A stretch of 64,000 nt of DNA, from the IMG/VR virus record IMGVR_UViG_3300028534_000001, positions 132,338 through 196,337 of that record; one strand, given 5' to 3'. A model generated the notes under the pieces. That model did no database searches. It was not told where the DNA came from and was given only the letters and a program-made list of their open reading frames with translations. Each line of letters opens with the position of its first letter. The stretch's first letter is position 1. Positions 8,084-59,780 of the stretch are shown in pieces. The position numbers were made by a program, and so were the translations under genes. This DNA comes from a virus (lineage: Duplodnaviria; Heunggongvirae; Uroviricota; Caudoviricetes).

Positions 8084-8101
8084 CTTTTTTAATAAAAATT
8101 T

Positions 8102-8467: not shown

Positions 8468-8476
8468 TTTAACTCC

Positions 8477-8680: not shown

Positions 8681-8707
8681 GATTTTTCCTTTTATATAAA
8701 GGAGAAA

Positions 8708-9289: not shown

Positions 9290-9290
9290 A

Positions 9291-11299: not shown

Positions 11300-11368
11300 A
11301 TATACTCCTAATTTTAAAAATATTTTATAATATAATTATAATATAAAAAATTAAAAAATATAACTTAT

Positions 11369-12903: not shown

Positions 12904-12915
12904 ATGTACTCCTTT

Positions 12916-13751: not shown

Positions 13752-13753
13752 TT

Positions 13754-14032: not shown

Positions 14033-14057
14033 GATTTTACCTTTTTCTTTTTTTGTT

Positions 14058-14086
14058 ATTATACAATAAATCAAAAGAAAAGTCAA
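14058..14086 (-). promoter_or_regulatory. sigma70-type early promoter
   Basis: The attata element is at 14058-14063 and agtcaa at 14081-14086, with a 17 nt spacer. Confidence 0.7.
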
Positions 14087-14452: not shown

Positions 14453-15550
14453 TTAAATCTCCTTTTTATTTATTATAATTTTAATTTCATCAAATTCATA
14501 CCCAAGAGGCATTTCTAAATTTTTCATCATATTATATAATACATTTTCAGGAATAAATTTTCCTTCAGTTTCAAATCTGTATTTATTTCTAAAAAATAAT
14601 TCTTTAATTGGTGTTAATAAAGTAATAGCAATAGGTGAATGATTTTTTAGATTTGTTAACCATTTTCTTCTACTTTTCCAAGTCATATTAGTCATATCTA
14701 TAATAAAATCTTCATTTGAATTTTTTAATTCAGTAAATTTTTTAGAAACTCTTCTATCAATTTCTTTATGATCATCTTCAGTTAACATATTCCAACCATC
14801 ACTATATGTAGGATAACCTTTGCCTTTGCATTTATTACAAATTGAATGATCTAAATTATCACCTACATATCCTTCAATATAACCTTTGCCATTACAAAAA
14901 TTACAAATAAATTTTTCTTTGATATAATTCATCAAAATATTATCTCTACTTAAAACTTTTAAATTAGGTAAATTTTCCTTAATATAAGTTGATTTTCCAC
15001 TTAAAGGTGTTCCGATCATAATATAACATTTATTTTTTTTAACACCTCTTTTTATGTCTTTAAAATCAACAATGCATTCTTTTGCTTTTCTATTATTTTC
15101 ATTATCGAAAAAAATATTACCAGCTTTATCAAATAATGAAAAATTATATATTTTAAGATATTTATCAATATTTTTAGCAAAATAATGTTTTATTTGTTTT
15201 TCACTTTTTTGCCATAACATCCCGTGATAATTGATTGTATATAAAACATCTAAAATTTTATCTTTACCTAAAATTCTTTCAATATCATCAATATATTCTA
15301 ATGCTTCAAAAGTCGAAATACCTTCGTGACCTCTGTAATAATCTTTTCCATCTTTGTGAGTTTTAGCATTTGGTTTTCCCAAATCATGTAACAAACCAAC
15401 AATTTTATTAAAATCATCATTTGCTTTGCTAAATACAAGACAAGTATGAGTCCAAGTATCACCTTCTAAATGGTATTTTTCACTATGTAAAATAACATTT
15501 CTCAATTTTTCAAAATGATCTTTTTTTATTTTTTTAAATAATGTTTCCAT
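14453..15550 (-). CDS. HD-phosphohydrolase + T4 Pnk-type polynucleotide 5'-kinase fusion with DnaJ-type zinc-finger insert
   Basis: The N-terminal HD domain is marked by H..H and GLLHDLGKP. The C-terminal IMIGTPLSGKSTYI, SRDNI and DMTNMTWKSRRKW align to T4 Pnk IGCPGSGKSTWA, NRDDY and DTNLNPERRLAW. The insert carries CNFCNGKG and CNKCKGKG. Confidence 0.6.
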   Translation of the reverse strand: METLFKKIKKDHFEKLRNVILHSEKYHLEGDTWTHTCLVFSKANDDFNKIVGLLHDLGKPNAKTHKDGKDYYRGHEGISTFEALEYIDDIERILGKDKILDVLYTINYHGMLWQKSEKQIKHYFAKNIDKYLKIYNFSLFDKAGNIFFDNENNRKAKECIVDFKDIKRGVKKNKCYIMIGTPLSGKSTYIKENLPNLKVLSRDNILMNYIKEKFICNFCNGKGYIEGYVGDNLDHSICNKCKGKGYPTYSDGWNMLTEDDHKEIDRRVSKKFTELKNSNEDFIIDMTNMTWKSRRKWLTNLKNHSPIAITLLTPIKELFFRNKYRFETEGKFIPENVLYNMMKNLEMPLGYEFDEIKIIINKKEI

Positions 15551-15553
15551 ATT

Positions 15554-15715
15554 TTACTCTTTATTTTTAGATTTTTTTGATTTTAAATTTTTTCTAAGAT
15601 TTTCTAATGGATTAGTTTCTGATTTACCAAAAATATAATCCATAACACTTTGTCTATTTTCTTTTGAACTTCTAATCCATTCTGTGATAATTTTTGCTTC
15701 TCCTGTTTGAATCAT
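15554..15715 (-). CDS. small hypothetical protein (53 aa), absent from ORF track
   Basis: An ATG at 15715 with an AAGGAG RBS lies immediately downstream of promoter 15745..15773. The stop TAA is the rc of 15554-15556. Confidence 0.3.
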   Translation of the reverse strand: MIQTGEAKIITEWIRSSKENRQSVMDYIFGKSETNPLENLRKNLKSKKSKNKE

Positions 15716-15744
15716 TTTTTCTCCTTTTTTATTTTCTTAATATA

Positions 15745-15773
15745 ATTATACCAAAATTTTATAAAAAAGTCAA
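15745..15773 (-). promoter_or_regulatory. sigma70-type early promoter
   Basis: The attata element is at 15745-15750 and agtcaa at 15768-15773, with a 17 nt spacer. Confidence 0.7.
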
Positions 15774-15779
15774 GAAAAT

Positions 15780-16265
15780 TTAAGAAATTTTTTCTAATAT
15801 TTTGATAACTTGATTTTTTAAATGTTCTAAATCTTTTGTATTATCTATAATATAATCAAACAATTCATCTGATAAATCTTGTTCTGTTATATGATTATCT
15901 TCATTTTTATTAAATCTTTTTACTTTTATTAGTATAGCATTCTGTTTTTTAAGAAATTCAATTTCATTCATAAATCTAACATCTGTAACTATTATTTTAT
16001 TTTTTAAATTTTGATCTACATAATTTATAAATTGATTCTCATCATATTTTCTCATTAACATACCTATATTTCTGAATATATGTCTCCAATAAGGTATTCT
16101 TTTTAGTGTATCATATGTATGTTCATCTATTTGAAATATTTTAAAAATTTCTTTTTTAATTGGGTCTGCAAAAGCAATTTTATTAAATTCATTATCTATT
16201 TCTTTTATAATTTGATATACTGTATCTTTTCCACTTCCTTTTAAACCATGTAAACCTATAATCAT
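15780..16265 (-). CDS. deoxynucleoside monophosphate kinase (T4 gp1-like)
   Basis: MIIGLHGLKGSGKDT matches T4 gp1 MKLIFLSGVKRSGKDT. DPIKKEI matches GPIKDAL and DNHITE matches DTHITE. Confidence 0.7.
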   Translation of the reverse strand: MIIGLHGLKGSGKDTVYQIIKEIDNEFNKIAFADPIKKEIFKIFQIDEHTYDTLKRIPYWRHIFRNIGMLMRKYDENQFINYVDQNLKNKIIVTDVRFMNEIEFLKKQNAILIKVKRFNKNEDNHITEQDLSDELFDYIIDNTKDLEHLKNQVIKILEKIS

Positions 16266-16303
16266 AAAAATCTCCTCAATTTTTAATTAAAAGAAAAAAT
16301 CTT

Positions 16304-17434
16304 TTAATTATCTAAATTTTTGATAAATTCTCTTGCTTTAGTAAGTTTAGAATTATCTTTTATTATTTTTTCTTTTAATAATTTATCTAAATCATTTTCA
16401 TTCTTTGCTTTCATTATAACTCCAAAATATGGGTATTTATTATATTTCATTGCAAATTCTTTTCTTTCCATATTTAGTTTTTCTTTAAAAAGATTTAAAC
16501 ATTTATTATATGTATGATTATAAAAATGTGAAACTTTGTTTGTTAATTCAGATATAATTTTATGTTTTTCACCTTTTAAATTTGATAAAATATCATCAAT
16601 TGTTTCATTTATAATATGTTCTATAAGTTTATTTTCAACTAATTCATTAGGTGATAATAATTTATGTAATGTAAAATACCACATTGTTTTAAATTTTCTA
16701 AAAGATGTTTTGAGTGGGTGATTATAATTTCTTACTACCCATCCTTCAATTCCTTCTTTTGTTTCTAGTAATTTTCTTAATTCTGATAATGTATAATTAT
16801 ATTTTTTTGCTAATTTTAAATTAAATTCTTTTGAAAAATGTTTTAAATCTTCATAATGTAAATATTCACCTGTAAATTTATTTCTTATTTGAATTAGTCT
16901 AAGTTCAAATTCTTCTTCATAATTAACAACAATTAAATTTTTCCACCCAACTAATTCAAAAAATGGAATAAATCCAATAAGTTTACAAGCTTTAATAAAA
17001 TTTAAATAATTTTCATTATTTTTAATAAATTTATTTGCTAAATCAGCTTGTTCTGAATAAAAAGAACCTTTAGTTCTAAGTAAAAAATTACCTTTTGAAG
17101 AAAATGTAGGAACAATTAAACTTCCATCTAATTTTTCCATAATTTCTAATTTATCATTATCATTCCAAGGTTTTTCTAATTCTTTATCAATAGTTAAAGG
17201 ATTTTCATTATCATTAAAAAATTTATGAAGACCTAACCATCTTTCTCCTGTATCCAAATTAAAACATAATCCTCTCATTTCTAATCTTTTAAAATCTTCA
17301 CTAAAATCGGTAAAACTTGCTAATCTATAATTAAAAATTCTAAATTTTTCTCCATCAAATTCCTCATCTTTATAATAAAAAGATTCATTATTTTCAACTA
17401 CTTTCATTGCTTCTTCTAAAGTTATTAAATTCAT
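16304..17434 (-). CDS. rnlA: RNA ligase 1 (T4 RnlA-like)
   Basis: At 376 aa it is close to T4 RnlA (374 aa). N-terminal FYYKDEEFDGEKFRIFNYRLASFTDF matches FFYSDDVS.GRTYRIFSYNYASYSDW. Motif I is EKLDGSL. Confidence 0.75.
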   Translation of the reverse strand: MNLITLEEAMKVVENNESFYYKDEEFDGEKFRIFNYRLASFTDFSEDFKRLEMRGLCFNLDTGERWLGLHKFFNDNENPLTIDKELEKPWNDNDKLEIMEKLDGSLIVPTFSSKGNFLLRTKGSFYSEQADLANKFIKNNENYLNFIKACKLIGFIPFFELVGWKNLIVVNYEEEFELRLIQIRNKFTGEYLHYEDLKHFSKEFNLKLAKKYNYTLSELRKLLETKEGIEGWVVRNYNHPLKTSFRKFKTMWYFTLHKLLSPNELVENKLIEHIINETIDDILSNLKGEKHKIISELTNKVSHFYNHTYNKCLNLFKEKLNMERKEFAMKYNKYPYFGVIMKAKNENDLDKLLKEKIIKDNSKLTKAREFIKNLDN

Positions 17435-17470
17435 TTTTATTCCTTATAATTATCATGGATATTTTATATA

Positions 17471-17499
17471 ATTATACTAAATTTTCAAATAAAAGTCAA
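17471..17499 (-). promoter_or_regulatory. sigma70-type early promoter
   Basis: The attata element is at 17471-17476 and agtcaa at 17494-17499, with a 17 nt spacer. Confidence 0.7.
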
Positions 17500-17507
17500 G
17501 AGAAATA

Positions 17508-18524
17508 TTAAATTTCTCTTTTTAAAATATCCCTTACTATTTCTTGAGCTGAAGGTCTTGCTAAATTTTGAATAATTTTTTTCTCGCCTTTATCTAATTC
17601 ATTAAATTTAGGATTATCTTTAATAAAATCTTCTAAAGCATCTTTGAAAAATAATCCTACAATTTTACCAAATTGTTTCCAATCTTTTTCAACTTCACCT
17701 TTTGAAAATAAATTATGAAGTCTATTAACTTCAAAGTATTTTGTAATTTCTTCTGCCCATTTTCTTTGTTCATCTGTAATTACAATTTGTTTTTTATTTT
17801 TAATTTTTTTAATTTTACCTTTTTCTTTAAATTTATCATTTTTATTTTTAAGAATAACTCTATCACCATTAGGCAATGTTTTATTAACTACTGGTTTAAT
17901 TACAACACCTTCACAAATATTTCCTTCTATAGGATTTAATCCATACAATTCAGGGATTTTTGTAGGAAATTCATTTGAAAATTGTAAACATTCTTCAAAT
18001 GTTCCTCTAAATAATTCTGGAACTACTTTAAATTCACAATTAAAAGCTAAATTTTTAACTTTATCCCATTCTAAAAATTCAGCATTTTCATCCTCATCAA
18101 CAGTCATAATATCAAAAACCATAAAATCAGTAAATGGAATATAATGAACTTCTTTTTGAATTTTTGTAAACCCTGGTTTAGTTTCACCATTAAAAATACC
18201 ACCAAAATGTTCTCCAAAAATTTGAACTTGTTTAATTTTTGGATTTTGTGAAATTAAAAAAGATGCAACTTTTTTAGCTGATTCTCTGTAATTTTCAAGC
18301 ATAATATCTGCATCATAAAATTTTTCTAATTCATTATCATTTAAAACAGATGTTCTTTTAGCAACTTTAACATTTTCTCCATCTGAAATGAAGCTAAAAT
18401 TTGTCCCGTGAATTTTTTCAGTAACTACCCATTCACAACAATCTATAATTCCACTTGTGATAATTCTTTTAATTTCTTTTTCTCTGTAAGAATTTTCAAT
18501 TGATGAATATTTTTTAAATTTCAT
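17508..18524 (-). CDS. rnlB: RNA ligase 2 (T4 Rnl2-like)
   Basis: MKFKKYSSIENSYREKEI...CEWVVTEKIHGTNFS is nearly identical to the T4 Rnl2 N-terminus and motif I EKIHGTN. At 338 aa it is close to T4 Rnl2 (334 aa). Confidence 0.8.
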   Translation of the reverse strand: MKFKKYSSIENSYREKEIKRIITSGIIDCCEWVVTEKIHGTNFSFISDGENVKVAKRTSVLNDNELEKFYDADIMLENYRESAKKVASFLISQNPKIKQVQIFGEHFGGIFNGETKPGFTKIQKEVHYIPFTDFMVFDIMTVDEDENAEFLEWDKVKNLAFNCEFKVVPELFRGTFEECLQFSNEFPTKIPELYGLNPIEGNICEGVVIKPVVNKTLPNGDRVILKNKNDKFKEKGKIKKIKNKKQIVITDEQRKWAEEITKYFEVNRLHNLFSKGEVEKDWKQFGKIVGLFFKDALEDFIKDNPKFNELDKGEKKIIQNLARPSAQEIVRDILKREI

Positions 18525-25192: not shown

Positions 25193-25221
25193 ATTATAAC
25201 AAAAAAGAAAGGAAAAGTCAA
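25193..25221 (-). promoter_or_regulatory. sigma70-type early promoter
   Basis: The attata element is at 25193-25198 and agtcaa at 25216-25221, with a 17 nt spacer. Confidence 0.7.
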
Positions 25222-26225
25222 GAACAAAATTCTTTTTTAAGCAATTTCATAAACATTTTTTCTAATTCATTCCAATTTGCTTTTTTAGGTAAATTTTCTT
25301 TTGCTACATCTTGAAGTTTTTCAAAATTTGCGAACTCAATTTCCATTTTTTCTTCTAATTCTTCAAGTGTAAATTCTAAATTTCTAATTTTTTTAAGTTC
25401 TTCAGCATTTTCTAATGGGAATTTTAACTGTTTTTTAACAATTAAATCTCTACCTTCTTCTAATAATCTAAATAAATGAAGAAAAAATTTAGCATCGTAT
25501 CCAAATTCTTTCCATTGTTCTGCTCTATGACTTGCACTAGTAATCTTTTCTTTCATCATTTTGTTTGCTTTTTTAATAAATAAATTTCTTGGAAATGTTA
25601 AATTACTTACAACAATTCCATCTTTTTTGAATAAATGTTTAAAAGGTGCAAATTCATTATAATGTTGAATTTCTCCAACTGTCATAATTCCATCGTGATT
25701 TTCAATAAATTTTTCAATTGTTTTTTGTAATGAAATTAAGTCTTTATAATTTACTGCTTTGTTTTTACCTTTTTTCATTTGACTTTTAGCATAACCCATA
25801 AATGAATGAAATACTCTTTGATTGATAAATAATTCACTATTATTTTGAAATTCTTCAAATTCTGGTGTATTGAATACAACTGCTTCAGGATTTGTATTGG
25901 CAAAAAGTAATTCTACAATGTTCGGATTTACATCTCCAGCTAATTTTAAAAATTTTTTTAATTCATAAACTTTACAATCTAATGCATCTTTTGTATTTTT
26001 ACCACTTTCATCTTTTACAACTTCTGATAAATCAACTTCTTCAACATTTTTAAAACCTAAGTGAAATTCAGGATTAGCTAAGAATACACCTAAAAAATCT
26101 ATGTCTGATTCAGGTGTATTTGTTCCATATAATTGACTACCACTTTTTGTCAAAAATAATAATCTCCCAAAAGGTTTAATTCTTTCTTTTACCATTTCTA
26201 AAATTTCTTGATTTGTTTTTAACAT
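25218..26225 (-). CDS. pol-beta superfamily nucleotidyltransferase
   Basis: LTKSGSQLYGTNTPESDIDFLGVF is the GS...D.D nucleotidyltransferase motif. 335 aa. Confidence 0.5.
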   Translation of the reverse strand: MLKTNQEILEMVKERIKPFGRLLFLTKSGSQLYGTNTPESDIDFLGVFLANPEFHLGFKNVEEVDLSEVVKDESGKNTKDALDCKVYELKKFLKLAGDVNPNIVELLFANTNPEAVVFNTPEFEEFQNNSELFINQRVFHSFMGYAKSQMKKGKNKAVNYKDLISLQKTIEKFIENHDGIMTVGEIQHYNEFAPFKHLFKKDGIVVSNLTFPRNLFIKKANKMMKEKITSASHRAEQWKEFGYDAKFFLHLFRLLEEGRDLIVKKQLKFPLENAEELKKIRNLEFTLEELEEKMEIEFANFEKLQDVAKENLPKKANWNELEKMFMKLLKKEFCS

Positions 26226-27535: not shown

Positions 27536-27757
27536 TTATTCTAAATTTGTAATTACGACTCCAAAATTACCTTTATCTGTGGTAACAACTTCACCTTCTC
27601 CAATTTTTACATTGTTAGCAAAAATCTCTACTTTTTCATTAACCTCTTTATCAAATTTAATTAAATCTTCAACTTTCAATGATTCAATTTCACTAAGTTT
27701 CATTTTAGTATCACATAATTTAACAAAAACATCAACTTTTACATCTTTTAAATTCAT
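27536..27757 (-). CDS. fliN: FliN/SpoA-domain flagellar motor switch-like protein
   Basis: The 73 aa protein DVKVDVFVKL..T.MKLSEIESLKVEDLIKFDK...VEIFANNVKIGEGEVVTTD..FGVVITNL fits the FliN C-terminal SpoA pattern. It overlaps the fliM-like gene by 4 nt. Confidence 0.55.
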   Translation of the reverse strand: MNLKDVKVDVFVKLCDTKMKLSEIESLKVEDLIKFDKEVNEKVEIFANNVKIGEGEVVTTDKGNFGVVITNLE

Positions 27758-28572
27758 TGTATCTCCTTTATATTATCATTTATTTTAATAGCAAAATCAT
27801 TTAATAATAAAGTATCTCCAACTTTAAAATTATCAATTTCTTTTACATTATATTTTTTAGTTTTACCTATTTCGATATCTAAATTAAAATCAAAATTTTT
27901 TTCTTTTTTATTGTTTTCTTTGAAAAAATCTTTAAATTCTTCATAAGGTAAACAAATATTTACCATACCTGAACTACTACCTACTATTATTTCAAATACA
28001 GCCATTATTGACGTTGAATGTTTTTTAGGTCTATAATAAGGTTGACTAAAATGAAAATCTATTATTTCTATATCATCACCAATTCTTTCAAAATCCTCTG
28101 AATATATAAAGGTATTTACTAATTTTCTCATTATTTCATTAGAAACTATTTTTTCAACATTATTGAATTGAATTTCACAAGATTCCATAAATGATTGTAT
28201 TAAAGATGGATTTATTTCAACAAAAAATGTTCTACCATCAAGTTTTAACTCATAAAAGAATGTTGGATGTGGTAAACACATAAGAAATTCATCAAATGTC
28301 AAAACATCTACACTATGCAATTGCATTTCAACTTCTTTTTTAACTAGACTTCTCAATTCAGGTAAAACATTATAAACAAATCTATCTAAAAGCCTTCTTA
28401 TATTTCTTAAATTTTGTTTAGAAACAATATTAGGCCTTTTAAAATCATAATATGTATATTTGTTTTGTTGATTTGAAACTTGTTCATCTTTAAATCTATT
28501 AGGTTGTATATCATCTTCTTCAACCATTTCTAAAAAAGCTTCAATTTCTTCTTGTGACATAATATCAGCCAT
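27754..28572 (-). CDS. fliM: FliM-like flagellar motor switch protein (lacks C-terminal FliN-like domain)
   Basis: MADIMSQEEIEAFL matches the FliM/FliY N-terminal LSQ-E/D-EIDALL. YDFKRPN..S...LRNIRRLLDRF matches FliM YDPNTQRRV..ERLQALEIINERF. GMVNICLPY matches GEFNICLPF and FKVGDTLLL matches LNPGDVLPI. Confidence 0.6.
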   Translation of the reverse strand: MADIMSQEEIEAFLEMVEEDDIQPNRFKDEQVSNQQNKYTYYDFKRPNIVSKQNLRNIRRLLDRFVYNVLPELRSLVKKEVEMQLHSVDVLTFDEFLMCLPHPTFFYELKLDGRTFFVEINPSLIQSFMESCEIQFNNVEKIVSNEIMRKLVNTFIYSEDFERIGDDIEIIDFHFSQPYYRPKKHSTSIMAVFEIIVGSSSGMVNICLPYEEFKDFFKENNKKEKNFDFNLDIEIGKTKKYNVKEIDNFKVGDTLLLNDFAIKINDNIKEIQ

Positions 28573-29509: not shown

Positions 29510-30001
29510 TTACTCCTTTAATGGGTTTTTACAATAAATATTTGTAGAAACAAAATCATATTTCAAAAATAATTTTTTATATGGATGTATTTCTTTTATA
29601 TAATAATAATTTTTACAAATAGGCAAATTAACTTTTTTTCTTATTTTTAATATATTATTATCTTGATAAATAAATATAAAATGATCATTTTCTATTGACG
29701 GGTATATTTTTTGTACATTTTCAATTATACTTTTTTCAAAATGAATCATTTTAATACTAATATAAATGTTTGTTAAAAACATTAAAAATAAAATTATTGA
29801 AAATATTTCCATACTAATAAATGAAACTACAATAATAAAAAAACCTAAAACAATCATTTCTAAATTTCCAAAAAATATAAATAACATTCCTATTATATAT
29901 AAATTATAAGAATATTTATCTTTTTTATAAAAATTTTTAAAATTATTAAAATACATTTTTAATTTATTCATTTGAATTTCCATATTTTTTCTCAATTTCA
30001 A
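29510..30001 (-). CDS. membrane protein
   Basis: 163 aa with two or three transmembrane helices and a C-terminal soluble domain. Confidence 0.4.
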   Translation of the reverse strand: MKLRKNMEIQMNKLKMYFNNFKNFYKKDKYSYNLYIIGMLFIFFGNLEMIVLGFFIIVVSFISMEIFSIILFLMFLTNIYISIKMIHFEKSIIENVQKIYPSIENDHFIFIYQDNNILKIRKKVNLPICKNYYYIKEIHPYKKLFLKYDFVSTNIYCKNPLKE

Positions 30002-30554
30002 TAATATTCAAAATTCTATCAATTTGTTCAAATAAATCTTCTTTATTTTCATTATATATAACAAATTTAGAATTTTTAATTTTTGAATAATCATCTAATT
30101 GTTTTTTAACAATATTTTCTGCTTCTAAATATGTAACTTTATCCCTAGTAACAATTCTTTCAATTCTAGTAATATCATCTGCATAAACACAAATTACATT
30201 ATCTTTAAACATTTCATATAATTTACCTTTTTTCTCAAAATATAAAGGATGTTCTATAAAATAAAGTTCTCCACTTTCTTCTAATTTTTTAACTACTCTT
30301 AAAATTCTATTTATAATAGTGGAGTGTAAAATTTTTTCTAAAATTTTTAATTTTTTATCATCTTCAAAAACAATTTTTCTTATTTCTTTTCTATTAGATG
30401 TTCCAAAAATTTGTTTTATTTCATTTTCTTTTTCTTCAAATACTTCTTTAGAAATATTATCCATATAAATTACTTTATAACCTTTTGTATTCAAAATATC
30501 AGCTACTGTAGATTTTCCACTACCTATACTTCCTGTGATAATATATCCATTCAT
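29964..30554 (-). CDS. dephospho-CoA kinase-like P-loop kinase
   Basis: YIITGSIGSGKSTVADIL..GYKVIYMD matches CoaE ALTGGIGSGKSTVA..G..VIDAD. C-terminal ITRIERIVTRDKVT.EAENIVKKQ matches the CoaE QL.R...RD..T.E....I..Q motif. Confidence 0.55.
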   Translation of the reverse strand: MNGYIITGSIGSGKSTVADILNTKGYKVIYMDNISKEVFEEKENEIKQIFGTSNRKEIRKIVFEDDKKLKILEKILHSTIINRILRVVKKLEESGELYFIEHPLYFEKKGKLYEMFKDNVICVYADDITRIERIVTRDKVTYLEAENIVKKQLDDYSKIKNSKFVIYNENKEDLFEQIDRILNIIEIEKKYGNSNE

Positions 30555-36052: not shown

Positions 36053-37420
36053 TTATTTTCTTTTTCTTTTAAATTCGTGAACATCATTAAACATAATTTG
36101 AACAATTTTATCACTTTGTTCAATTTGAATTATATGTTTTTCATCTTTAGATAATTCTAAAAATGTTTTCCCATCACACCAAATATGAAAAGGTTTTCTT
36201 GATTTTATTTTAATTGTTAAATTTTGAGGTTCTAAAACATAATGGATTTTTCTATTAGTTTTATCTCCTGTTATAACCCAATTATTTGAAGTTAAAGGTA
36301 AAATAACACCACCATTATTTTTATTTATACCAGTACTACCTTGAGCAGTTGATACAATTATACCACTACCTTTGAAATCTTCAATTTGTTCATCTTTATC
36401 ATCAACACTAAAATCAATCCAAGACGACATATCACCACCTATACATATTTCATTAAAAGCTAAATGCCAATTATTTTCATATTTTACTTTTAATAAATGT
36501 AGTGAAATAATTTCAGGATTTGATATATTTTCTTCTTTATTCATAAGAAAATTTAAAGTACCTTTTCCAACACCATAAAAAGGTTTGTTTTTAAAAGAAA
36601 ATTCTCTTATAGCAAGAAGCATTGTTCCATCACCACCATATACTTTAATAAAATTTGTATATTCTACTATTTTATAATATTTATCAAATGTTTTTAATTC
36701 CCAAATAATTTCACCCCAAAATTTCCATTCATTTAATAATTTGAATGTTTTTTCAAAAAGGTATTTTTTACCTAATTCTTTATTTTTTCTAATTTCTCTT
36801 GCGTGAATAACATTTCCATTATTAGTAAATTCTTCAATATTTTTAATGTGATATCCTTCTAATCCAAAAATAGTAGGATAATTACCGTGATATTTTTTAT
36901 TTTTATATTCAAAATCAATCTTATCGACATCTTTTAAATGTGAATATAAAATAATATTTTTTTTAGATGATATGTCTAAAATTTGTTTTTCTATATTTTC
37001 AAACCATTTATCCCAAGATTCATAGTCATTAGCTCCTATTATAATAGCATTTGGGTATATTTTTTCAATAATTTCTTTTCTTTGTTCAAAAGATAAAGGA
37101 TTTTTATCATCAAGTATTTTATTTATACTACCTATTACAATTATAGGTATTAAACCATCTTCAATAATTTTATTAACAATACTAGCATGTCCTTTGTGGA
37201 AAGGTTGAAATCTTCCTAGAAATAATCCATATTTTTGGTTATAATTTTCATCACATATAAAACTTTCAATAAAAAATTGACCTCCCATAGGAGTATCAGA
37301 ACCTACTTTAAATCCACATTTAGAACATTTATAAATAGTTACTCCATTTCCTTTATATTCTTCTTCAATTATTTCTCTATAATTTTTTGAATATATTCCA
37401 CATTTAGGACATTTATACAT
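36053..37420 (-). CDS. bifunctional NMN adenylyltransferase (NadM-type) / NAD kinase fusion with N-terminal zinc ribbon
   Basis: The N-terminus is CPKCG...CSKCG. GLFLGRFQPFHKGHASIV...IIVIGS matches the archaeal NadM motif GRFQPFH.GH...IG.GS. The C-terminal domain carries the NAD kinase motifs GGDGTMLLA, GVGKGTLNFL, NEICIGG and GIIVSTAQGSTGINKNNGGVILP. Confidence 0.7.
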   Translation of the reverse strand: MYKCPKCGIYSKNYREIIEEEYKGNGVTIYKCSKCGFKVGSDTPMGGQFFIESFICDENYNQKYGLFLGRFQPFHKGHASIVNKIIEDGLIPIIVIGSINKILDDKNPLSFEQRKEIIEKIYPNAIIIGANDYESWDKWFENIEKQILDISSKKNIILYSHLKDVDKIDFEYKNKKYHGNYPTIFGLEGYHIKNIEEFTNNGNVIHAREIRKNKELGKKYLFEKTFKLLNEWKFWGEIIWELKTFDKYYKIVEYTNFIKVYGGDGTMLLAIREFSFKNKPFYGVGKGTLNFLMNKEENISNPEIISLHLLKVKYENNWHLAFNEICIGGDMSSWIDFSVDDKDEQIEDFKGSGIIVSTAQGSTGINKNNGGVILPLTSNNWVITGDKTNRKIHYVLEPQNLTIKIKSRKPFHIWCDGKTFLELSKDEKHIIQIEQSDKIVQIMFNDVHEFKRKRK

Positions 37421-37431
37421 TTTTTCTCCTT

Positions 37432-40047: not shown

Positions 40048-40590
40048 TTATAAGTTAAATTCTTTAAAGTGGTATGCCAAATAAATGTAAAACATTTTAT
40101 CTAAAACCATTTGAATTGTTTCATCTAAAGTGTTATAAAATTGTATATCATTTTTCATAAATTCTTTTATATATCTTACTTTTTCGGCATTTTTAGGAAT
40201 ACCTACAATTAACTTTTTATAATTTTTTGAATACCAATAACCTAATTCAAATTGTGTACTCATTCCTATCATTTTATTCATTTCTCTTGGTATCCAAAAC
40301 ATAATAAGTTGAGATTTATTCATAGCATCTTTTTCATTTTCAATTTGATTAACTAATTTCTTATCATCTAAAATAATTTGTCTTTTAGGTGTTATTAAAT
40401 TAACATCAAAATTAAATCTTTTATAAATAGGATTTTCTAACATTTTTTCAAAAATTTTATAAGCATTTTCATGCCAATCATTTTCTTTTCCTCTGACAAT
40501 AGGACCTGCTAAAAATATTGAATTTTTATATTCAATATCTTTATCAATCACATTATAAATTTTCATTGATTCTCCTTTCAATAATAACAA
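40048..40590 (-). CDS. nucleoside 2-deoxyribosyltransferase-like protein (PF05014-like)
   Basis: SIFLAGPIVRGKENDW...LITP...QLIMFWIP...STQFELGYW resembles the deoxyribosyltransferase flavodoxin-like core (S.YLAGP...W......E.G.A). Confidence 0.35.
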   Translation of the reverse strand: MLLLKGESMKIYNVIDKDIEYKNSIFLAGPIVRGKENDWHENAYKIFEKMLENPIYKRFNFDVNLITPKRQIILDDKKLVNQIENEKDAMNKSQLIMFWIPREMNKMIGMSTQFELGYWYSKNYKKLIVGIPKNAEKVRYIKEFMKNDIQFYNTLDETIQMVLDKMFYIYLAYHFKEFNL

Positions 40591-43515: not shown

Positions 43516-44901
43516 TTATTTATCTATATTTTCTCTAATTTTATCAAGTGTTATTTCGTTTTTTATTTCTCCATTCTCAAAAACAACTTTTAGCATATCA
43601 ATATCGTTAGGTTGTTTTTCACTTTCTTTAATACAGATAATTTTATCATTTCTTTTAACAGTAATTACTTTACCTTTTTTAGATTGTTTTTTACTATCTG
43701 TTATAGGATTTTTAAACACTTCAACTCCAACTTTTTTACTATCTATATTTCTTTCAATATAAGAACATTTCATAGCAAAACTAAATGTATCTCTATCAAT
43801 TCCAGTTTGCCCTAATTGTGTTCCACTACCAAAAACAAAATTTTCAGCTGCATATCCTCTTTCTGTAAATATTTTAAGGATGTTATCAATTGTTTCAGGA
43901 TTAACACCATCACCCCATAGCACGCTCGTCCAACTACTTGCTTTCTTTCCATTTATTTCAATATCAAAAACATTGTTTTTTTCCATAATTTCAAACATTT
44001 TAGAAATGACTTCAATTGGGTTTCCACTATCTGGACGAATAACAAATGTTTGATTATTTTTAATAATTGATTTTCTAATATTACTTTCAGGTTTTGTAAC
44101 TTCATTTGTAAAATTATAAATATCATAACTATCTGCCACAAATGATAGGATAGCACCTTCTTTATCATTTTCTCTAACCATTCTTTCAATAAATGCTATT
44201 TCTTTTTCAGTTGAACCTTCAGCGTTAGCAGTAGTTGAACTATGTTCCGACGCAAATACGCTAAAAGCGCTTATTTCAGAACTATAAAAATCTCTTGCGA
44301 ATTTAAGAGAATTAAAATTATCTGTCCCATAAAATACACAATTATGAGCGAAACCACTAATTGCTGCTGATTCTACACTTGTCATACTTCTATCCCCAAA
44401 GTTATGATAAGCAAATCTTGCCCATTCTTCACTTCCATATTTTTTAAGCATTTCAAAAACCTGTTTGCTTTTAGTTGTAATAACTGTAGGATACCATATT
44501 TTCATAAGTATTGTCTCCACCCATCCTACTATCCACGGAACATTTTCATCTGTGCTTTCTACTATTACAAGTGGAACACCAGGTTTAACTTTTACACCTT
44601 CTTCAATTGCTTTAATTTTAATAGGAAGTCTTCCATCAAGTTCTTTAGCAATATACATCCAACCATCATAATTAAAATCTATTCCGTGAAGTTTAGCAAA
44701 TTTTGCTGCTTCTTCTACCATTTCTGTAGTAATTCTTTGACTAAGATACCTTTTTAGGTAATATTGAAGACCACTCATAATAATTGTATCAGGACCTTTT
44801 CTTGCCTCGATATAATCATACATATAACACATATCTTTTGGGTATTGTTTATAATGACCATATTTATAAGAATCACTCATCATTACTATATTTTCAACCA
44901 T
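43516..44901 (-). CDS. nadV: nicotinamide phosphoribosyltransferase (NadV/NAMPT)
   Basis: SDSYKYGHYKQYP matches NAMPT TDSYKVTHYKQYP. ADSYDIYN, VIRPDSGNP, FGSG, KCSY and VFKNP..D..K.SKKG all match NAMPT signature blocks. The length is 461 aa. Confidence 0.85.
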   Translation of the reverse strand: MVENIVMMSDSYKYGHYKQYPKDMCYMYDYIEARKGPDTIIMSGLQYYLKRYLSQRITTEMVEEAAKFAKLHGIDFNYDGWMYIAKELDGRLPIKIKAIEEGVKVKPGVPLVIVESTDENVPWIVGWVETILMKIWYPTVITTKSKQVFEMLKKYGSEEWARFAYHNFGDRSMTSVESAAISGFAHNCVFYGTDNFNSLKFARDFYSSEISAFSVFASEHSSTTANAEGSTEKEIAFIERMVRENDKEGAILSFVADSYDIYNFTNEVTKPESNIRKSIIKNNQTFVIRPDSGNPIEVISKMFEIMEKNNVFDIEINGKKASSWTSVLWGDGVNPETIDNILKIFTERGYAAENFVFGSGTQLGQTGIDRDTFSFAMKCSYIERNIDSKKVGVEVFKNPITDSKKQSKKGKVITVKRNDKIICIKESEKQPNDIDMLKVVFENGEIKNEITLDKIRENIDK

Positions 44902-51967: not shown

Positions 51968-53455
51968 TTAAGCATTTAGATATATGTATGTATCGGGATA
52001 AATCATATCACCAACATCACTTGTAATTTTAAATTGAAAACTTCTTCCTTTTTTGAAAACAACATCATAATTATAAGTTATTCTATCAAAATAAGTCAAA
52101 TTATTAGTAATCATATTATCTATTGGATATTCTTCTTTAATATTAAATGCTGATTGATTTTCATATTGATCATCCCAATTATTATCAATACTATCATCAT
52201 CTGGTGCTAAACTACAATATAATTTATTATTAGAAATTCTATATATTATGGAAGGAGCAGATTCTAATTTATTTCCTGAAATATCAATTTTATAAATAGT
52301 TTTTTCATCTTTTCTATTTATATAATCATAATATTCTTCAGTATTATAAACACCAATATTATATTCAAATTGAGCAAATTTATTACCAATTGTTTTACTA
52401 AAAAATTCTAATAAAGTATATCTATAATCTTCTTTTCTCCAATCACTATTTTCATTTGTCTTTTGAATAGCTTTACTATTATGTCCATCTAAAACTTTTT
52501 TATTATTAACAAAAACTATAAATCTTCCATCACTTGTTAATTGAACTATAATTGAATGATATTGATCTTTTGTAAAAATAACATCTTCAGTTGTAACATC
52601 ATATGCATTTTCATCATCATTAGCTGGATATTTATAATTTTCAGTATAACTATCAAAATATCCAAATCTAATTCTTAATTTATTATCTGTTGTTTGGAAA
52701 ATATCACAAAAATAAGGTATATATTTTTTTTTACCACTATAATAATAACTTGATAATGATCCAGTAGCAAATCTATATAATAAATCGTCTTCTTCTAAAT
52801 TATCTGAAGCAGGTTTAAAAAATATAGAAGTAAATCTATCTTTAGAATAAACCATTTTATTAAAAATATTTTGGTCAAATAAATTTAATTGTACTTTTTC
52901 TACATTTCCATTTTCATCTGCTGCTGTTTTTAATACTAAACCATTTTCATCATTTTCAAAAGGACTATCTGCTTCTTGAACATATGTTCCTTTTGTTACT
53001 AATTGTTCTGTTGGTATTTTATATAAAATATCATCAAAATTTATATTAGCATAATTTTTTTGTCCATCTTTTAACATAGGTTTTGCAAAAGAATAAACAA
53101 CTAAAGGTTCAACTTCATCTTCTTTTTCAAAAGAAGAATATTCTCTAAATAAACCTTTTATTTCTGTTACTTCACCTGCAGTTATAAATTTTCCATTTGG
53201 GTTTTCATTATTAACAATGTAAAATTGTTTATCTTTTTCAATTCTACTTTGTTCTAAAAGTTGTTTAGTTAAATATATTTCATCTTTTGTTATGTTTGGA
53301 TAACCTGGAATTTCAATAATAGGTAATCTTTGTAAACCCATATTAAAATTTCTAACTTGGTAGCTAGACCAATCTGGTTGATCATCATATTGGTGTTTAA
53401 TTTCACTTTCCCAAATACTACCATCTTTTATTGAATATATTTTATCATAAGCCAT
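51968..53455 (-). CDS. hypothetical protein (possible virion/late protein)
   Basis: The 495 aa ORF has no early-promoter consensus upstream. It is the first of three large consecutive genes. Confidence 0.4.
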   Translation of the reverse strand: MAYDKIYSIKDGSIWESEIKHQYDDQPDWSSYQVRNFNMGLQRLPIIEIPGYPNITKDEIYLTKQLLEQSRIEKDKQFYIVNNENPNGKFITAGEVTEIKGLFREYSSFEKEDEVEPLVVYSFAKPMLKDGQKNYANINFDDILYKIPTEQLVTKGTYVQEADSPFENDENGLVLKTAADENGNVEKVQLNLFDQNIFNKMVYSKDRFTSIFFKPASDNLEEDDLLYRFATGSLSSYYYSGKKKYIPYFCDIFQTTDNKLRIRFGYFDSYTENYKYPANDDENAYDVTTEDVIFTKDQYHSIIVQLTSDGRFIVFVNNKKVLDGHNSKAIQKTNENSDWRKEDYRYTLLEFFSKTIGNKFAQFEYNIGVYNTEEYYDYINRKDEKTIYKIDISGNKLESAPSIIYRISNNKLYCSLAPDDDSIDNNWDDQYENQSAFNIKEEYPIDNMITNNLTYFDRITYNYDVVFKKGRSFQFKITSDVGDMIYPDTYIYLNA

Positions 53456-53568
53456 TTCCTGTCCTTTTATTTTTATTTATTCAAACAATACATTAACAAT
53501 ATAAAAAATCTTTAATAATATTATTAAATTCAATTTTAAACACAATTTTATTATAATTTGATTTTAAA

Positions 53569-54855
53569 TCATTCTATTACTTTGTCTTGATAATATTGAG
53601 CTTGTCCAAAAATATTTTTCTTAATATAATAATTATCAAATTCTGTTCTAATTATAATTCTATCAGGACTTGATTTTAAATTAGAAATTTGTTTTGACAT
53701 ATATTTAATATTATTTTCAAAACTATCTTTTGATGTATAAAAATTATTAAATTCAGTTTCAATTATAATTTTATCTTTAAAAGAATTTTTTGTAATTAAA
53801 TTTTTAATTCTAAATGATATATTATTTTCAAAGGCATCTTTTAATATATAAAAATCATTGAATTCTGTTCTAATTACAACTTTATCTTTACTATCAACAA
53901 TATCAATGGATTTATTCATAAATGTAATATTATTTATATAATCTGTTTTTAATAAATAATAATCGTCAAATTCTGTTCTAATTACAACTTTATCTTTACT
54001 ATCAACAATATCAATAGATTTATTCATAAATGTAATATTATTTACAAATTCTGTTTTTAATAAATAATAATCATCAAATTCTGTTCTAATTATTGTTCTA
54101 TCTTTTGAATTAACTATTATATCATCTTTTCTTAAATATTTTATATTTTTTATAAAAGAATCACTATATTTAAAAATATTATCAAATTCTGTTCTAATTA
54201 TTATATTATCTCTAATATTAGATAAATAAATATTTTTATCTATAAATCCAATGTCGTAAATAAAACCTTCTGATATTTTAAATTTAGATAAATCAGGTAA
54301 AACAAAATTATATTCTGGTTGACTTTCTGATGTTTCTTTAGGAATTTCAATAGAAAAATTTGTACCTACCAAAGGTATAGGAAATGTTATTTTATAATCA
54401 TCAAAATTATCTCCATTATAATTTCCGTAATATTTTATTACGACTTCTGCTTCAAAAGGTTCTTTGAAAGAATTTCTCCAATTTCCTTTTAAAGGGAATT
54501 TTATTAAAATTTCTTCTTCTTTATTGTTATATGCAAATGCAATAAATGTTGGTTCCCCATTTGGGGCATCTTTCCATAATTTTGACCAATCTTCTTCATA
54601 TAAATTTTGGAAATCATTTAAATTATTACCATTTTCTAATATTTTTTCTACATCTTCTTCAGGTAATCTATCAAGTCTTGAATCTTTGATACCTTCATAT
54701 ACTAATTTCCATTCTTTATCATCAAAGTCATAATAATACCATTTTAATAAATCTGTAGTTACTAATACTTTAGCGTTGATTGATACCTTACTTCTTAATT
54801 GAAAAATTTTATCAAATGGATACAAATCCACCAATCTTTTTGGTGTAAAAATCAT
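53569..54855 (-). CDS. repeat-containing protein (about 36 aa IIRTEFD..Y..K..F.NNI.FM.K repeats)
   Basis: At least six tandem peptide repeats are present. Two adjacent DNA copies at 53861..54076 are nearly identical. Confidence 0.45.
   Translation of the reverse strand: MIFTPKRLVDLYPFDKIFQLRSKVSINAKVLVTTDLLKWYYYDFDDKEWKLVYEGIKDSRLDRLPEEDVEKILENGNNLNDFQNLYEEDWSKLWKDAPNGEPTFIAFAYNNKEEEILIKFPLKGNWRNSFKEPFEAEVVIKYYGNYNGDNFDDYKITFPIPLVGTNFSIEIPKETSESQPEYNFVLPDLSKFKISEGFIYDIGFIDKNIYLSNIRDNIIIRTEFDNIFKYSDSFIKNIKYLRKDDIIVNSKDRTIIRTEFDDYYLLKTEFVNNITFMNKSIDIVDSKDKVVIRTEFDDYYLLKTDYINNITFMNKSIDIVDSKDKVVIRTEFNDFYILKDAFENNISFRIKNLITKNSFKDKIIIETEFNNFYTSKDSFENNIKYMSKQISNLKSSPDRIIIRTEFDNYYIKKNIFGQAQYYQDKVIE
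53861..54076. repeat. intragenic tandem direct repeat, 2 x about 108 bp, near-identical
   Basis: aattctgttctaattacaactttatctttactatcaacaatatcaat[g/a]gatttattcataaatgtaatattattta... occurs twice back to back. More diverged copies extend across about 53600-54250. Confidence 0.6.
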
Positions 54856-54893
54856 ATCATATCCTTTTATCTAATAAAGGAAAAAATCCCTTA

Positions 54894-56330
54894 TTAGAAT
54901 TGTTTATCCATATTTTCTACAGTAACTCTAATTTTAGAAGCACTTGTTAGATCAATATGAATAGTATTAGCATCAATAACACTTATTGTAGCACTGTCAT
55001 TGTAATATTTTTTCTCATCATCATCATAAACCCATAACATAACATCTATAAATTCACTTCCAAGATTGTGTTTAATATCAAAACTTGTAGCTTCATCACT
55101 TGATTCATATGTATATCTAATTGAATTTATTTCAGTTCTAATTGTAGTGTTATTTGTATCACATTTATCACTTACAGATTTAATAGCTGCGTCTAATTTA
55201 TTATCAGCATCTGCTAAACTTGAAGCTCCAGAAATGTAATTAGCATTACTATTTACTACATAATTTCCATCAGAATCTAAACCAGCTCCTGCTTCTACTC
55301 TATCAACTTCTTTTTGAAGAGCATCTGCATCACCACCAGTTGCAACTTTAACTAAAATATAATTACCATTAGAATCTTTTTCACCTGTTGGGATTTTTAC
55401 AGTATCATCATTTTCATCCCAAATTAGTAATGGCATAATACCTTCTTTACCTCTATTTACTTCCATACCTGCATTTTCTGTAGGGTCTGCATCATTAGGT
55501 ACATCAGAATTTAAAGTAAAGATATTATCTGATATTAACATTTGTTTAGTATTTACTTGTGTTACTTCACCTTTAATAGTTAAATCACCATTAACATATA
55601 GATTTTTTTGGAATGTAACATTACTTGCAACTGTTTGATCATCTGTAGTAACTTTATCTAAAAATCTACCATTAGCATCAGCTTCAAAATCATCAATTTG
55701 TTTTTGAAGAGCAGCATCAGCATCTTTTCTATCTGAAACTTCTTGTACTAAACTTTTATCTAATAATTGTGTTGCTTCATTTATTGATTTAGCATCTTTA
55801 ATATATGCTCCATTATCATAAGGAACATAATTTCCATCTTTATCTAATCCAGCTCCAGATTGAGTATTATCTAATTCATCTTGAACTTTAGAAATATCAT
55901 CTTCTGCTTTAGCTAAATTGTCGTCAATAACTTTTCTATCAGCATCAATACCATCTACTAAAGATTTTAATGTATCTTCTAAATTTCCTGAAGGAATACT
56001 AAATTTATCATTAGCTCCATCGTGACCCATAAATCCAACTAAATGAGAACCTTCACCTGGTTTTACAGAAGCTAATTTTTCAATAAATCCATAAAATTCT
56101 TCTGCTGTATTAAATTTAAAAATTTTAGGAGTTTCTGTAGTATTTCCATCACTATCTTTTGTTTCTTCTACAAAAACACCTTTAAAACATTTATCATTTG
56201 AATTATACCAAATTCTACCTGGTACTAATTCTGTAGGGTCTTTTTCTAAATTTTCAAAAACTGCATTTCTAAAATCAGCATTAGGTGCTAATTCAATACA
56301 GTGAAATTTTTGAACTCTACTCATAATCAT
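54894..56330 (-). CDS. tail-fiber-like protein (speculative)
   Basis: The 478 aa protein has an internal duplicated motif, SGAGLDKDGNYVPYDNGAYI and EAGAGLDSDGNYVVNSNANYI. There is no early promoter upstream. Confidence 0.35.
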   Translation of the reverse strand: MIMSRVQKFHCIELAPNADFRNAVFENLEKDPTELVPGRIWYNSNDKCFKGVFVEETKDSDGNTTETPKIFKFNTAEEFYGFIEKLASVKPGEGSHLVGFMGHDGANDKFSIPSGNLEDTLKSLVDGIDADRKVIDDNLAKAEDDISKVQDELDNTQSGAGLDKDGNYVPYDNGAYIKDAKSINEATQLLDKSLVQEVSDRKDADAALQKQIDDFEADANGRFLDKVTTDDQTVASNVTFQKNLYVNGDLTIKGEVTQVNTKQMLISDNIFTLNSDVPNDADPTENAGMEVNRGKEGIMPLLIWDENDDTVKIPTGEKDSNGNYILVKVATGGDADALQKEVDRVEAGAGLDSDGNYVVNSNANYISGASSLADADNKLDAAIKSVSDKCDTNNTTIRTEINSIRYTYESSDEATSFDIKHNLGSEFIDVMLWVYDDDEKKYYNDSATISVIDANTIHIDLTSASKIRVTVENMDKQF

Positions 56331-58958: not shown

Positions 58959-59780
58959 TTAAATTTTTAATAATTTTTCAAATTCTGTTCTAACTCTTTC
59001 AGGATTAGCTTTTTTCATCATATAATCAAAATTTCTTCTAGCTGCTTCTAAAGTTCCTTTAATAGGTTTAAATCCTTTTTTAATAAATTTATATACTCTA
59101 ATAACTCTTAATGCATCTTCGTTTATTCTATCTTCAGGTTTTCCTATAAATGAAAATTCTTTATTTAAACAATGTCTAATACCTCTTTTAGAAGAGTCAA
59201 TAATAATATTTGTTTTTAAATCAAAATATAAAGCATTGATAGTAAAATCTCTTCTTTGCCAATCATCTTCTAAATTACCAAAATTGACTTCATCTGCTCC
59301 CAATCCTTTTGATTTATTATAAACATCTTTTCTAAATGTTGCTATTTCAAATGATTCTTTTGCTTTAATCATAATAACACCAAAATGTTCTCCAACTAAA
59401 TCTAATTTAATATCTTCATCTTTTAAAATATCAACAATTTCATTAGGTTTTAAATTTGTAACTAGATCAATATCTTTTGGTTTTAAACCTGCTAAAATAT
59501 CCCTAACAAACCCTCCTACAATATAAACATTACCTTTTTCTAAAAGTTTTTCAATCCATTTATTTTCTTTTTTAAATTGATTAGAATTATCTTTTAAATT
59601 TAAATATCTTTCAAATAATAAATCAAATTCTTTTAAATTTGTTTCTTCTAAAATTTTTAGTGGATTTTTATCTAATTTTTTTAAAAATTCTTTTTCAAAA
59701 ATCTTAGAATTATCATTAGTAAATTCAATACCATTTTTAAAAGCTAATTCTCTAAATTTTTCTAAAATATAATTTTTCAT
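58959..59780 (-). CDS. compact tRNA nucleotidyltransferase (CCA-adding / polyA polymerase head domain)
   Basis: YIVGGFVRDILAGLKPKDIDLVT matches GGAVRD.LLG....D.D. FEIATFRKDVY matches EVTTFR.E. QRRDFTINAL matches RRDFT.NA. The protein is only 273 aa, with an extra N-terminal segment of about 80 aa. Confidence 0.7.
   Translation of the reverse strand: MKNYILEKFRELAFKNGIEFTNDNSKIFEKEFLKKLDKNPLKILEETNLKEFDLLFERYLNLKDNSNQFKKENKWIEKLLEKGNVYIVGGFVRDILAGLKPKDIDLVTNLKPNEIVDILKDEDIKLDLVGEHFGVIMIKAKESFEIATFRKDVYNKSKGLGADEVNFGNLEDDWQRRDFTINALYFDLKTNIIIDSSKRGIRHCLNKEFSFIGKPEDRINEDALRVIRVYKFIKKGFKPIKGTLEAARRNFDYMMKKANPERVRTEFEKLLKI

Follow-up and report, generated by a model that had tools for sequence, protein, structure and literature searches.

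Several phage-encoded pathways that rebuild nicotinamide adenine dinucleotide (NAD+) have been described, of which NARP2 (Osterman et al. 2024) and the KVP40-type combination of NadV and NadM-Nudix most resemble the locus described here. Both pair a NadV-type nicotinamide phosphoribosyltransferase (NAMPT) with a NadM-type adenylyltransferase (NMNAT) for nicotinamide mononucleotide (NMN) in large phages, leading from nicotinamide to NMN and on to NAD+, and NARP2 is an established counter-defense against NAD-depleting systems (bioRxiv 10.1101/2024.02.11.579819; PMC13464706). All described NARP routes (NARP1, NARP2 and NARP3) end at NAD+. The paper on NARP1 and NARP2 mentions neither NADP nor a kinase (bioRxiv 10.1101/2024.02.11.579819), and a 2022 survey of NAD+/ADP-ribose (ADPR) systems in 21,191 viral proteomes listed NadV, NadM-Nudix and NadR, with NAD kinase absent. 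Here we describe a gene in a 64-kb stretch of viral DNA from IMG/VR record IMGVR_UViG_3300028534_000001 (the whole stretch is referred to as the window), which encodes a zinc ribbon, a NadM-type NMNAT and an NAD kinase (NADK) domain in one polypeptide. As in NARP2, NAMPT and NMNAT are co-encoded, but the NMNAT of the window is fused to NADK and not to a Nudix ADPR pyrophosphatase, which would add a step from NAD+ to NADP+.

Other described systems share single aspects of this arrangement. In NadR and NARP3, too, a kinase is joined to the NMNAT of a phage NAD pathway (PMC13464706), but the P-loop ribosylnicotinamide kinase of NadR acts before adenylylation (nicotinamide riboside to NMN), whereas the NADK-fold kinase of the window protein would act after it (NAD+ to NADP+). 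The archaeal NADP phosphatase/NAD kinase of the MJ0917 type (NF010678) is likewise an NADK fused to an enzyme of NAD(P) metabolism, and the window protein matches this model at 2.5e-13 with its kinase half only. The partner in MJ0917-type proteins, however, is an inositol-monophosphatase-type NADP phosphatase, which balances NAD and NADP rather than building them. The cultured jumbo Sinorhizobium phage Phosso (PV764938.1) encodes an annotated NADK (XYS97238) within 7.5 kb of a PnuC-like transporter gene and an NMNAT gene; in this case the kinase is a separate gene with the canonical pocket sequence GDG…GSTAY, about 30% identity and a different NADK lineage. Phosso is an independent case of a phage NADK near NAD-salvage genes.

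Both enzyme families and the logic of salvage were known before, so the locus does not represent a categorical novelty; what is new is NARP2-type salvage extended by, and here fused to, a divergent NADK. A preliminary description of this DNA had called the fusion an unknown architecture, and neither an NMNAT-NADK fusion nor a phage NADK is described in the literature searched, which included the NARP1/2 and NARP3 papers and the survey of 21,191 viral proteomes. We favor, at a probability of about 0.57, the reading that the protein is a bifunctional enzyme converting NMN to NAD+ and NAD+ to NADP+, and that together with NAMPT it constitutes NARP2 plus a kinase and refills both pools.

Domain architecture of the fusion protein

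The domain order proposed in the preliminary description was borne out by Pfam, NCBIfam and PDB searches and by an AlphaFold model. Assignments agree across Pfam, NCBIfam, PDB sequence and profile searches and Foldseek, and domain identities and fold are established. The model, built from a 10-sequence family alignment, has a pLDDT of 85.2 and a pTM of 0.76, with low confidence confined to the linker at residues 55-60. The gene upstream stops at 37432, 11 nt before the fusion gene. Because a Shine-Dalgarno sequence sits 5 nt from the first ATG (Table 1), the full-length protein including its Cys-rich N terminus is expected to be translated.

The N-terminal half belongs with the NMNATs. The signature GRFQPFHKGH…IGS spans residues 69-98, and G69, R70, Q72, P73 and H78 do not vary among the 10 fusions (the window protein and nine homologs, see below). 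The first His of GRFQPFHKGH is Thr in P0008 and P0009, as permitted by the (H/T)xGH motif. The second phosphate-binding motif (ISSTxxR-like) is represented by IHAREIR, in which all 10 fusions share H206 and R211, R211 also being invariant among stand-alone NMNATs; the Thr position of this motif, residue 208, is Arg in the window protein, in P0079 and in the NMNAT of contig L018. Pfam CTP_transf_like (PF01467) matches residues 66-146 (E = 5e-8, 33.7 versus a cut-off of 21), and the NadM-Nudix models of NCBIfam match residues 63-165 (4e-13); NadM-specific NCBIfam models score well under their cut-offs (NF002243, 39.9 versus 127; TIGR01527, 35.3 versus 181). All PDB sequence matches are NMNATs, namely NadM-Nudix (2qjo/2qjt), archaeal NMNAT (1f9a) and NadR, and a family-profile search of the PDB returned NMNATs in 12 of 12 matches (best 2e-16). 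The fold is a Rossmann-like nucleotidyltransferase fold nearest to NMNATs. The protein does not belong to the NadM-Nudix class, as its C-terminal half is an NADK and not a Nudix domain.

The C-terminal half carries GGDGTML at residues 262-268 and NEICIGG at 323-329. Pfam NAD_kinase_C (PF20143) matches residues 329-436 (1e-5, 25.6 versus a cut-off of 23.7) and the NCBIfam NAD kinase model PRK04761 matches residues 252-449 (1e-19). PDB matches are exclusively to NAD(H) kinases, with profile E values down to 5e-14, and the fold is the two-domain NADK fold, distinct from diacylglycerol and sphingosine kinases. We assembled 42 members of this NADK subfamily, fused and stand-alone. The catalytic Asp of GGDG (D264) is present in all 42, as is N323 of the NE/D motif (FNE, 322-324), with position 324 being Glu in 22 and Asp in 20; the backbone of the Gly-rich loop, STxQGSTGINKxxGG, is also conserved. 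Column identity averages 59% over the 10 fusions. Both halves are under purifying selection, since the catalytic signatures of each are invariant or nearly so in the fusions and D264 and N323 are universal in the subfamily.

The zinc ribbon is modeled as a beta ribbon with a pLDDT of 72-78, and the region has weak Pfam zinc-ribbon matches (E about 0.07). Its four Cys residues are kept in homolog P0001 and missing from the other eight fusions, and the two-enzyme core can clearly do without the ribbon. In the subfamily, most stand-alone NADKs have an N-terminal CxxC…CxxC ribbon of their own, and N-terminal extensions of stand-alone NMNATs show no Cys richness. A hidden Markov model (HMM) of the stand-alone NADK ribbons scored 7.9 bits on the window ribbon, which was equalled by 37 of 500 Cys-preserving shuffles, and 1.8 bits on P0001, not above its Cys-preserving shuffles.

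The same phage NMNAT subfamily also occurs with another kinase. In the 391-aa metagenomic protein P0039 the NMNAT domain is fused to a CoaE-type P-loop kinase (Pfam CoaE, 1.5e-26; TIGR00152 over its cut-off). With the NADK fusions, this protein shows the phage NMNAT joined to two different adenosine-ribose kinases; candidate substrates of the CoaE-like kinase are dephospho-CoA, nicotinamide riboside and NAD. The window contains a stand-alone CoaE-like gene, and contig L017 has one 3 kb from its NADK.

Rarity and conservation of the fusion

The identical protein was found on three contigs from two sources, one of which is ENA ERZ27262685 k141_589182 (207,484 bp). A search of 5.8 billion proteins recovered nine homologs with NMNAT-NADK architecture from other samples, at 47-54% identity, followed by about 20 stand-alone NADKs at 41-50%. 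A fusion profile was also run exhaustively with HMMER over 1.84 billion cluster representatives (50% identity). Both halves were matched by only two of them, P0003 and P0008, and the rest of the best 150 matched a single half. An assembly or frameshift artefact is ruled out by the identical copies on three contigs and the nine homologs. The fusion is genuine, conserved in a small clade and rare, as these copies, homologs and full-span representatives demonstrate. In a neighbor-joining tree (no bootstrap), the NADK domains of all 10 fusions group as a single clade, which is consistent with one fusion event.

Deposited phages offer little that is comparable. None had a match covering at least 80% of the fusion protein, and among 50,697 phage records only 15 contained an NADK-like sequence of any kind, none exceeding 32% identity, versus 2,012 records with NAMPT. 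The NADK subfamily was seen exclusively in viral or metagenomic contigs. A scan of 185,579 species genomes returned ordinary NADKs alone, at 35% identity or less and with no clue to a host, and the subfamily motifs were present in 0 of 80 cellular NADK loci from these genomes. The phage subfamily is its own clade, separate from all sampled cellular NADKs, and as a divergent lineage it provides material for studies of substrate recognition.

A recurrent NAMPT-NMNAT-NADK module

Linkage of the fusion gene to nadV, suggested in the preliminary description, proved stronger than supposed, in that most related viral contigs carry NAMPT, NMNAT and the NADK subfamily together. The nadV gene of the window is 6 kb from the fusion gene, and its product is 85% identical to the NAMPT adjoining the fusion gene in contig L004. 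A scan of IMG/VR yielded 12 viral contigs with a full-length NADK of the subfamily. An NMNAT, either of the small NadM type or NadM-Nudix, is within 10 kb of the NADK in 10 of these, and NAMPT is within 10 kb in 9. A NadM-Nudix gene adjoins a separate NADK in L005, L019, L022 and L023, and the stand-alone NADK domain, 225-330 aa in length, occurs in more than 30 contigs. Linkage of the three genes is thereby established. The module is conserved, was observed only in viral and metagenomic contigs, and takes two forms, a cassette of three genes and, rarely, a fused enzyme.

The fusion is therefore a rare arrangement of a commoner split NMNAT-NADK pair and not an isolated invention. Two contigs, L018 and L013, have the NMNAT and NADK genes directly adjoining in the order seen in the fusion (Table 1). 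Such a pair would turn into the fusion if the stop codon between the two genes were lost.

A gene with a PF15891 (nucleoside 2-deoxyribosyltransferase-like) domain is a tentative member of the module. Like the window, the divergent contigs L004, L006 and L016 each have such a gene no more than 6 kb from the NADK or fusion gene (34-36% identity), and the product could be a nucleotide N-glycosidase tied to NAD/phosphoribosyl pyrophosphate (PRPP) metabolism, or could serve unrelated processing of deoxynucleoside monophosphates (dNMP). In L023, a 235-kb IMG/VR contig, the NAMPT match is in two pieces about 0.7 kb apart, which points to a disrupted gene or to an insertion such as an intron or intein. 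In the fusion-bearing relative L003, a ribonucleotide reductase of 1,591 aa contains intein and homing-endonuclease domains, and a chaperone set (HSP20, HSP70, GrpE and DnaJ) adjoins its fusion gene.

Proposed pathway and alternative explanations

In the proposed pathway, NadV would form NMN from nicotinamide and PRPP, the NadM-type domain would adenylylate NMN to NAD+, and the fused short NADK domain would phosphorylate the adenosine 2′-OH of NAD+ to give NADP+. The fusion would have arisen once, from the adjoining NMNAT-NADK pair that is frequent in a clade of large T4-like phages, uncultured and low in GC. The most likely use of the fusion would be to replenish both pyridine-nucleotide pools of the infected cell after drainage; plausible drains are host NADase defense effectors, some of which cleave NADP+ too, and the NAD(P) demand of the phage itself. 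Both enzyme activities and the physiological purpose are inferred, as is any channeling of substrate between the domains. The enzymology is likely, several roles are candidates for the purpose, and the analogy with NARP2 makes a part in counter-defense plausible. NADP+ and NAD+ are cleaved equally fast by the SPARTA effector TIR-APAZ (PMC9097488). Restoring NAD+ alone need not restore NADP+ where an effector degrades both, which makes rebuilding of the NADP pool a sensible rationale. If the module is active, phages would have a stake in rebuilding NADP(H) as such, which would fit the report that some defense NADases cleave NADP+ as well. The predicted one-polypeptide route from NMN to NADP+ is also compact, with a possible use in cofactor regeneration.

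Several observations weigh against this reading. The preliminary description had reported all NAD kinase motifs. GGDGTML and NEICIGG are there as described, but the third motif, quoted as DG.IVST.QGSTG, in fact reads SGIIVSTAQGSTG, and two residues of the nicotinamide pocket are replaced. The position of the canonical Asp (Asp150 of LmNADK1) is S352 in the window protein and Gly in most relatives (Gly in 32, Ser in 9 and Cys in 1 of the 42), and that of Tyr163 is I365 (Ile in 40, Val in 2). The C-terminal domain does align to PF01513 (residues 257-294) with GGDG and the catalytic Asp intact, but at 18.8 against a cut-off of 25.5 and over profile positions 75-112 only. Every curated NCBIfam cut-off is missed by far, the best NAD-kinase equivalog scoring 70.4 bits against 211. 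The domain lacks the first beta-alpha unit of the N-domain, being about 30 residues shorter N-terminally than cellular NAD kinases (PpnK/NadK; LmNADK1 2i1w, Thermotoga maritima 1yt5, Pseudomonas aeruginosa 7qvs). Within the DNA available, NAMPT was not seen in two of the four distinct fusion contexts. Among the window genes nothing links the module to a particular defense system, and the SIR2 and nucleotide-metabolism genes of the window offer grounds for the pathway other than defense.

The pocket changes bear most directly on the choice of substrate. The base bound in subsite N of LmNADK1 is stacked on Tyr163 and forms a hydrogen bond with Asp150 (PMC7660225), and in the Archaeoglobus fulgidus NADK and human NADK2 the nicotinamide ring is stacked on Tyr or Trp (PMC9245612). 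Because the equivalents of both LmNADK1 residues are replaced in all 42 subfamily members, recognition of NAD+ must differ, or the substrate may. The register of the pocket residues is the same in all five printed PDB alignments. Two further departures from cellular NAD kinases are invariant in the subfamily: the Thr preceding the Tyr163 equivalent is Gln (Q360), and the motif W.ITGDKTNRKI takes the place of the canonical segment that follows the Gly-rich loop. In a cellular control, 49 of 69 NADK open reading frames (ORFs) carried Asp and Tyr/Trp/His at the two pocket positions. A clade of Erysipelotrichaceae NADKs, including those of Holdemanella, Dubosiella, Allobaculum and Ileibacterium (L034, L061, L064, L068-L079, L083, L095, L097 and L100), has Ser/Cys and Val/Ala/Ile there, in the motif GSG…STQxGSTA(V/A/I)NR, and is not sister to the phage subfamily. 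The Holdemanella protein reaches the curated cut-off of NF003424 (224.8 versus 220 bits), so that substitutions of this kind are compatible with a curated NAD kinase, and a strong claim of altered substrate was downgraded for this reason. The substitutions are a real caveat on substrate recognition without disqualifying the domain as an NAD kinase, and we infer NAD+ as its substrate.

The alternative that survives best keeps the biochemistry and changes the purpose, with the pathway supplying NADP(H) for synthesis of deoxynucleoside triphosphates by the phage and/or recycling nicotinamide from its own SIR2 protein. The phage enzymology of KVP40-type NadV and NadM was described ahead of any known role in defense. 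The NADPH consumers would be ribonucleotide reductase with thioredoxin/glutaredoxin, and dihydrofolate reductase or ThyX; several related contigs carry ribonucleotide reductase and further nucleotide-metabolism genes with a need for NADPH, the reductase being encoded close to the NADK or fusion gene in L003 and L007, and the window encodes dCMP deaminase and a dNMP kinase. The genome is about 80% A+T, which would imply heavy demand for dTTP. SIR2 is encoded in the window, and L017 has a SIR2 44% identical to it 0.5 kb downstream of its NADK. On the other side, NARP2 was shown experimentally to counter NAD-depleting defenses (bioRxiv 10.1101/2024.02.11.579819), and the NAMPT gene of L007 adjoins the anti-CBASS gene Acb1. 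We consider a purely metabolic purpose somewhat unlikely, and the two purposes are not mutually exclusive.

It is a speculative and rather doubtful proposition that the remodeled pocket and the new motif give the NADK subfamily a new property, such as NADP+ synthesis that is insensitive to feedback by NAD(P)H, or phosphorylation of ADP-ribose-type molecules such as ADPR or cyclic-ADPR immune signals. If true, the module would constitute a distinct fourth phage route of NAD(P) reconstitution or counter-defense, for which there would be a need because TIR-type effectors destroy NADP+ besides NAD+. A related and decidedly improbable explanation is that the substrate itself has changed, to NADH, nicotinic acid adenine dinucleotide (NaAD), ADPR or ADPR-derived immune signals, or that inhibition by NAD(P)H has been lost. 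The remodeled nicotinamide subsite, Q360 and W.ITGDKTNRKI would fit such a change, as would the subfamily motifs missing from the cellular loci and the canonical residues kept by the cultured phage Phosso. However, the adenosine subsite and catalytic residues are intact, the Erysipelotrichaceae clade has similar substitutions, and with NMNAT so tightly linked or fused, NAD+ is the substrate of greatest economy.

The preliminary description had also proposed that NAD+ is shunted into NADP+, a pool that NADases would be unable to use. Immediate conversion of nascent NAD+ in a fused enzyme might hide it from effectors that act on NAD+ only, and on chemical grounds phosphorylation of the 2′-OH would block formation of 1″-2′ cyclic ADPR. 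The premise is contradicted for at least one TIR effector, since SPARTA TIR-APAZ cleaves NADP+ and NAD+ at similar rates (PMC9097488). The phage would still require NAD+, for example for its own SIR2, and an NADP phosphatase for returning NADP+ to NAD+ was not seen in the window, all of which makes a shunt very improbable. That the C-terminal domain is a dead, NAD(P)-binding regulatory or oligomerization module for the NMNAT is scarcely credible, for although the N-subdomain is truncated and profile scores fall below threshold, the GGDG Asp and the NE/D Asn are universal in the subfamily and the stand-alone form cannot regulate a fused partner.

The window as phage DNA and its other genes

The window has about 20% G+C, with nearly all genes on the minus strand, and looks like part of a large T4-like phage. 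Phage origin is suggested by the T4-type RNA ligases Rnl1 and Rnl2, the dNMP kinase, the 207-kb contig and the relatives in IMG/VR; the nearest relatives of the window Rnl2 come from T4-like phages of Vibrio and Aeromonas. The 64 kb contain no recognizable gene for a capsid, portal or terminase protein, and PHROGs and Pfam gave no hallmark in the large ORFs. Several of these ORFs are without a Pfam match, and among them only the 698-aa ORF has a PHROG match, a weak one to a family of unknown function. With tblastn, no match to the 554-aa ORF was found in the 50,697 deposited phages. By sequence comparison, the lineage is very distant from cultured phages.

Table 1 Features of the window and of related contigs (positions are those of the window unless a contig is named)
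Feature	Position	Strand	Details
Fusion gene	36053..37420	−	455 aa plus stop codon; ATG start (ORF list)
Shine-Dalgarno sequence AGGAG	37426..37430	−	5′ of the fusion-gene ATG at 37420; read from the sequence
N-terminal zinc ribbon, residues 1-45	37286..37420	−	C4-x2-C7 (CPKC 4-7), C32-x2-C35 (CSKC 32-35)
NadM-type NMNAT domain, residues 63-236	36713..37234	−	GRFQPFHKGH 69-78, IHAREIR 205-211
Short NAD kinase domain, residues 237-455	36056..36712	−	GGDGT 262-266 (catalytic D264), NE 323-324
NADK domain, further motifs			Gly-rich loop 349-372; subfamily motif WVITGDKTNRKI 381-392
nadV (NAMPT)	43516..44901	−	NF006629 431.6 bits versus cut-off 405; Pfam NAMPT_N and NAPRTase; phrog_448 4e-119
PF15891 gene	40048..40590	−	Pfam 2e-13
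CoaE-like gene, stand-alone	29964-30554	−	Passes TIGR00152 cut-off; 40% identical to C-terminal half of P0039
SIR2-family gene	12193-12903	−	Pfam SIR2 9e-26; best NCBIfam match CobB-type NAD-dependent deacylase, below cut-off
Stand-alone Nudix hydrolase, 139 aa	29088-29507	−	Pfam 8e-15; MutT-/NudC-like best, all below cut-off
FliM-like gene	27754-28572	−	Pfam FliM 1.3e-19; small ORF with FliN C-terminal domain just downstream (L008 18849-19885)
RNA/tRNA repair and maturation genes	14453-18524, 25218-26225, 58959-59780, 62274-63080	−	
Large ORFs without Pfam match, 428-698 aa	5863-7959, 51968-56330, 60249-61913	−	
Cpn10 and YqeY genes	~9.6-10.3 kb		
L003 ribonucleotide reductase	542-5317		
L003 chaperone set	12400-17073		
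L004 (101-kb contig)			NAMPT, one ORF, fusion, radical-SAM-like gene, PF15891 gene; NAMPT 0.8 kb upstream of fusion
L004 PF15891 homolog	12445-12963		
L005			Phage-like contig; NAMPT, NadM-Nudix and NADK as three successive genes
L006			NAMPT, NMNAT of window subfamily (41% identity, unannotated), zinc-ribbon NADK and PF15891 inside 5 kb
L006 PF15891 homolog	11211-11666		
L007			T4-like contig (gp13, ribonucleotide reductase, ligase, Acb1); NADK and NAMPT 10 kb apart
L013			NMNAT then NADK, 16-nt overlap; gene order as in fusion
L016 PF15891 homolog	5258-5683		
L017 SIR2	11181-11801		
L018			NMNAT then NADK, 12-nt gap; gene order as in fusion
L023 NAMPT match	7818-9955		

The genes for RNA and tRNA repair and maturation encode a Pnk-like AAA_33 kinase, T4-type Rnl1 and Rnl2, RlaP, the head domain of a CCA-adding enzyme and a Thg1 tRNA-His guanylyltransferase; the window itself yielded no tRNA genes. 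The SIR2-family protein is a consumer of NAD encoded near the NAD(P) synthesis module. The stand-alone Nudix hydrolase, 6.5 kb from the fusion gene, shows weak similarity to the Nudix portion of the L023 NadM-Nudix protein and may supply the Nudix function that the fusion lacks. Cpn10 and YqeY genes are also present, and the predicted FliM and FliN proteins are flagellar motor switch proteins inside an otherwise phage-like genome.

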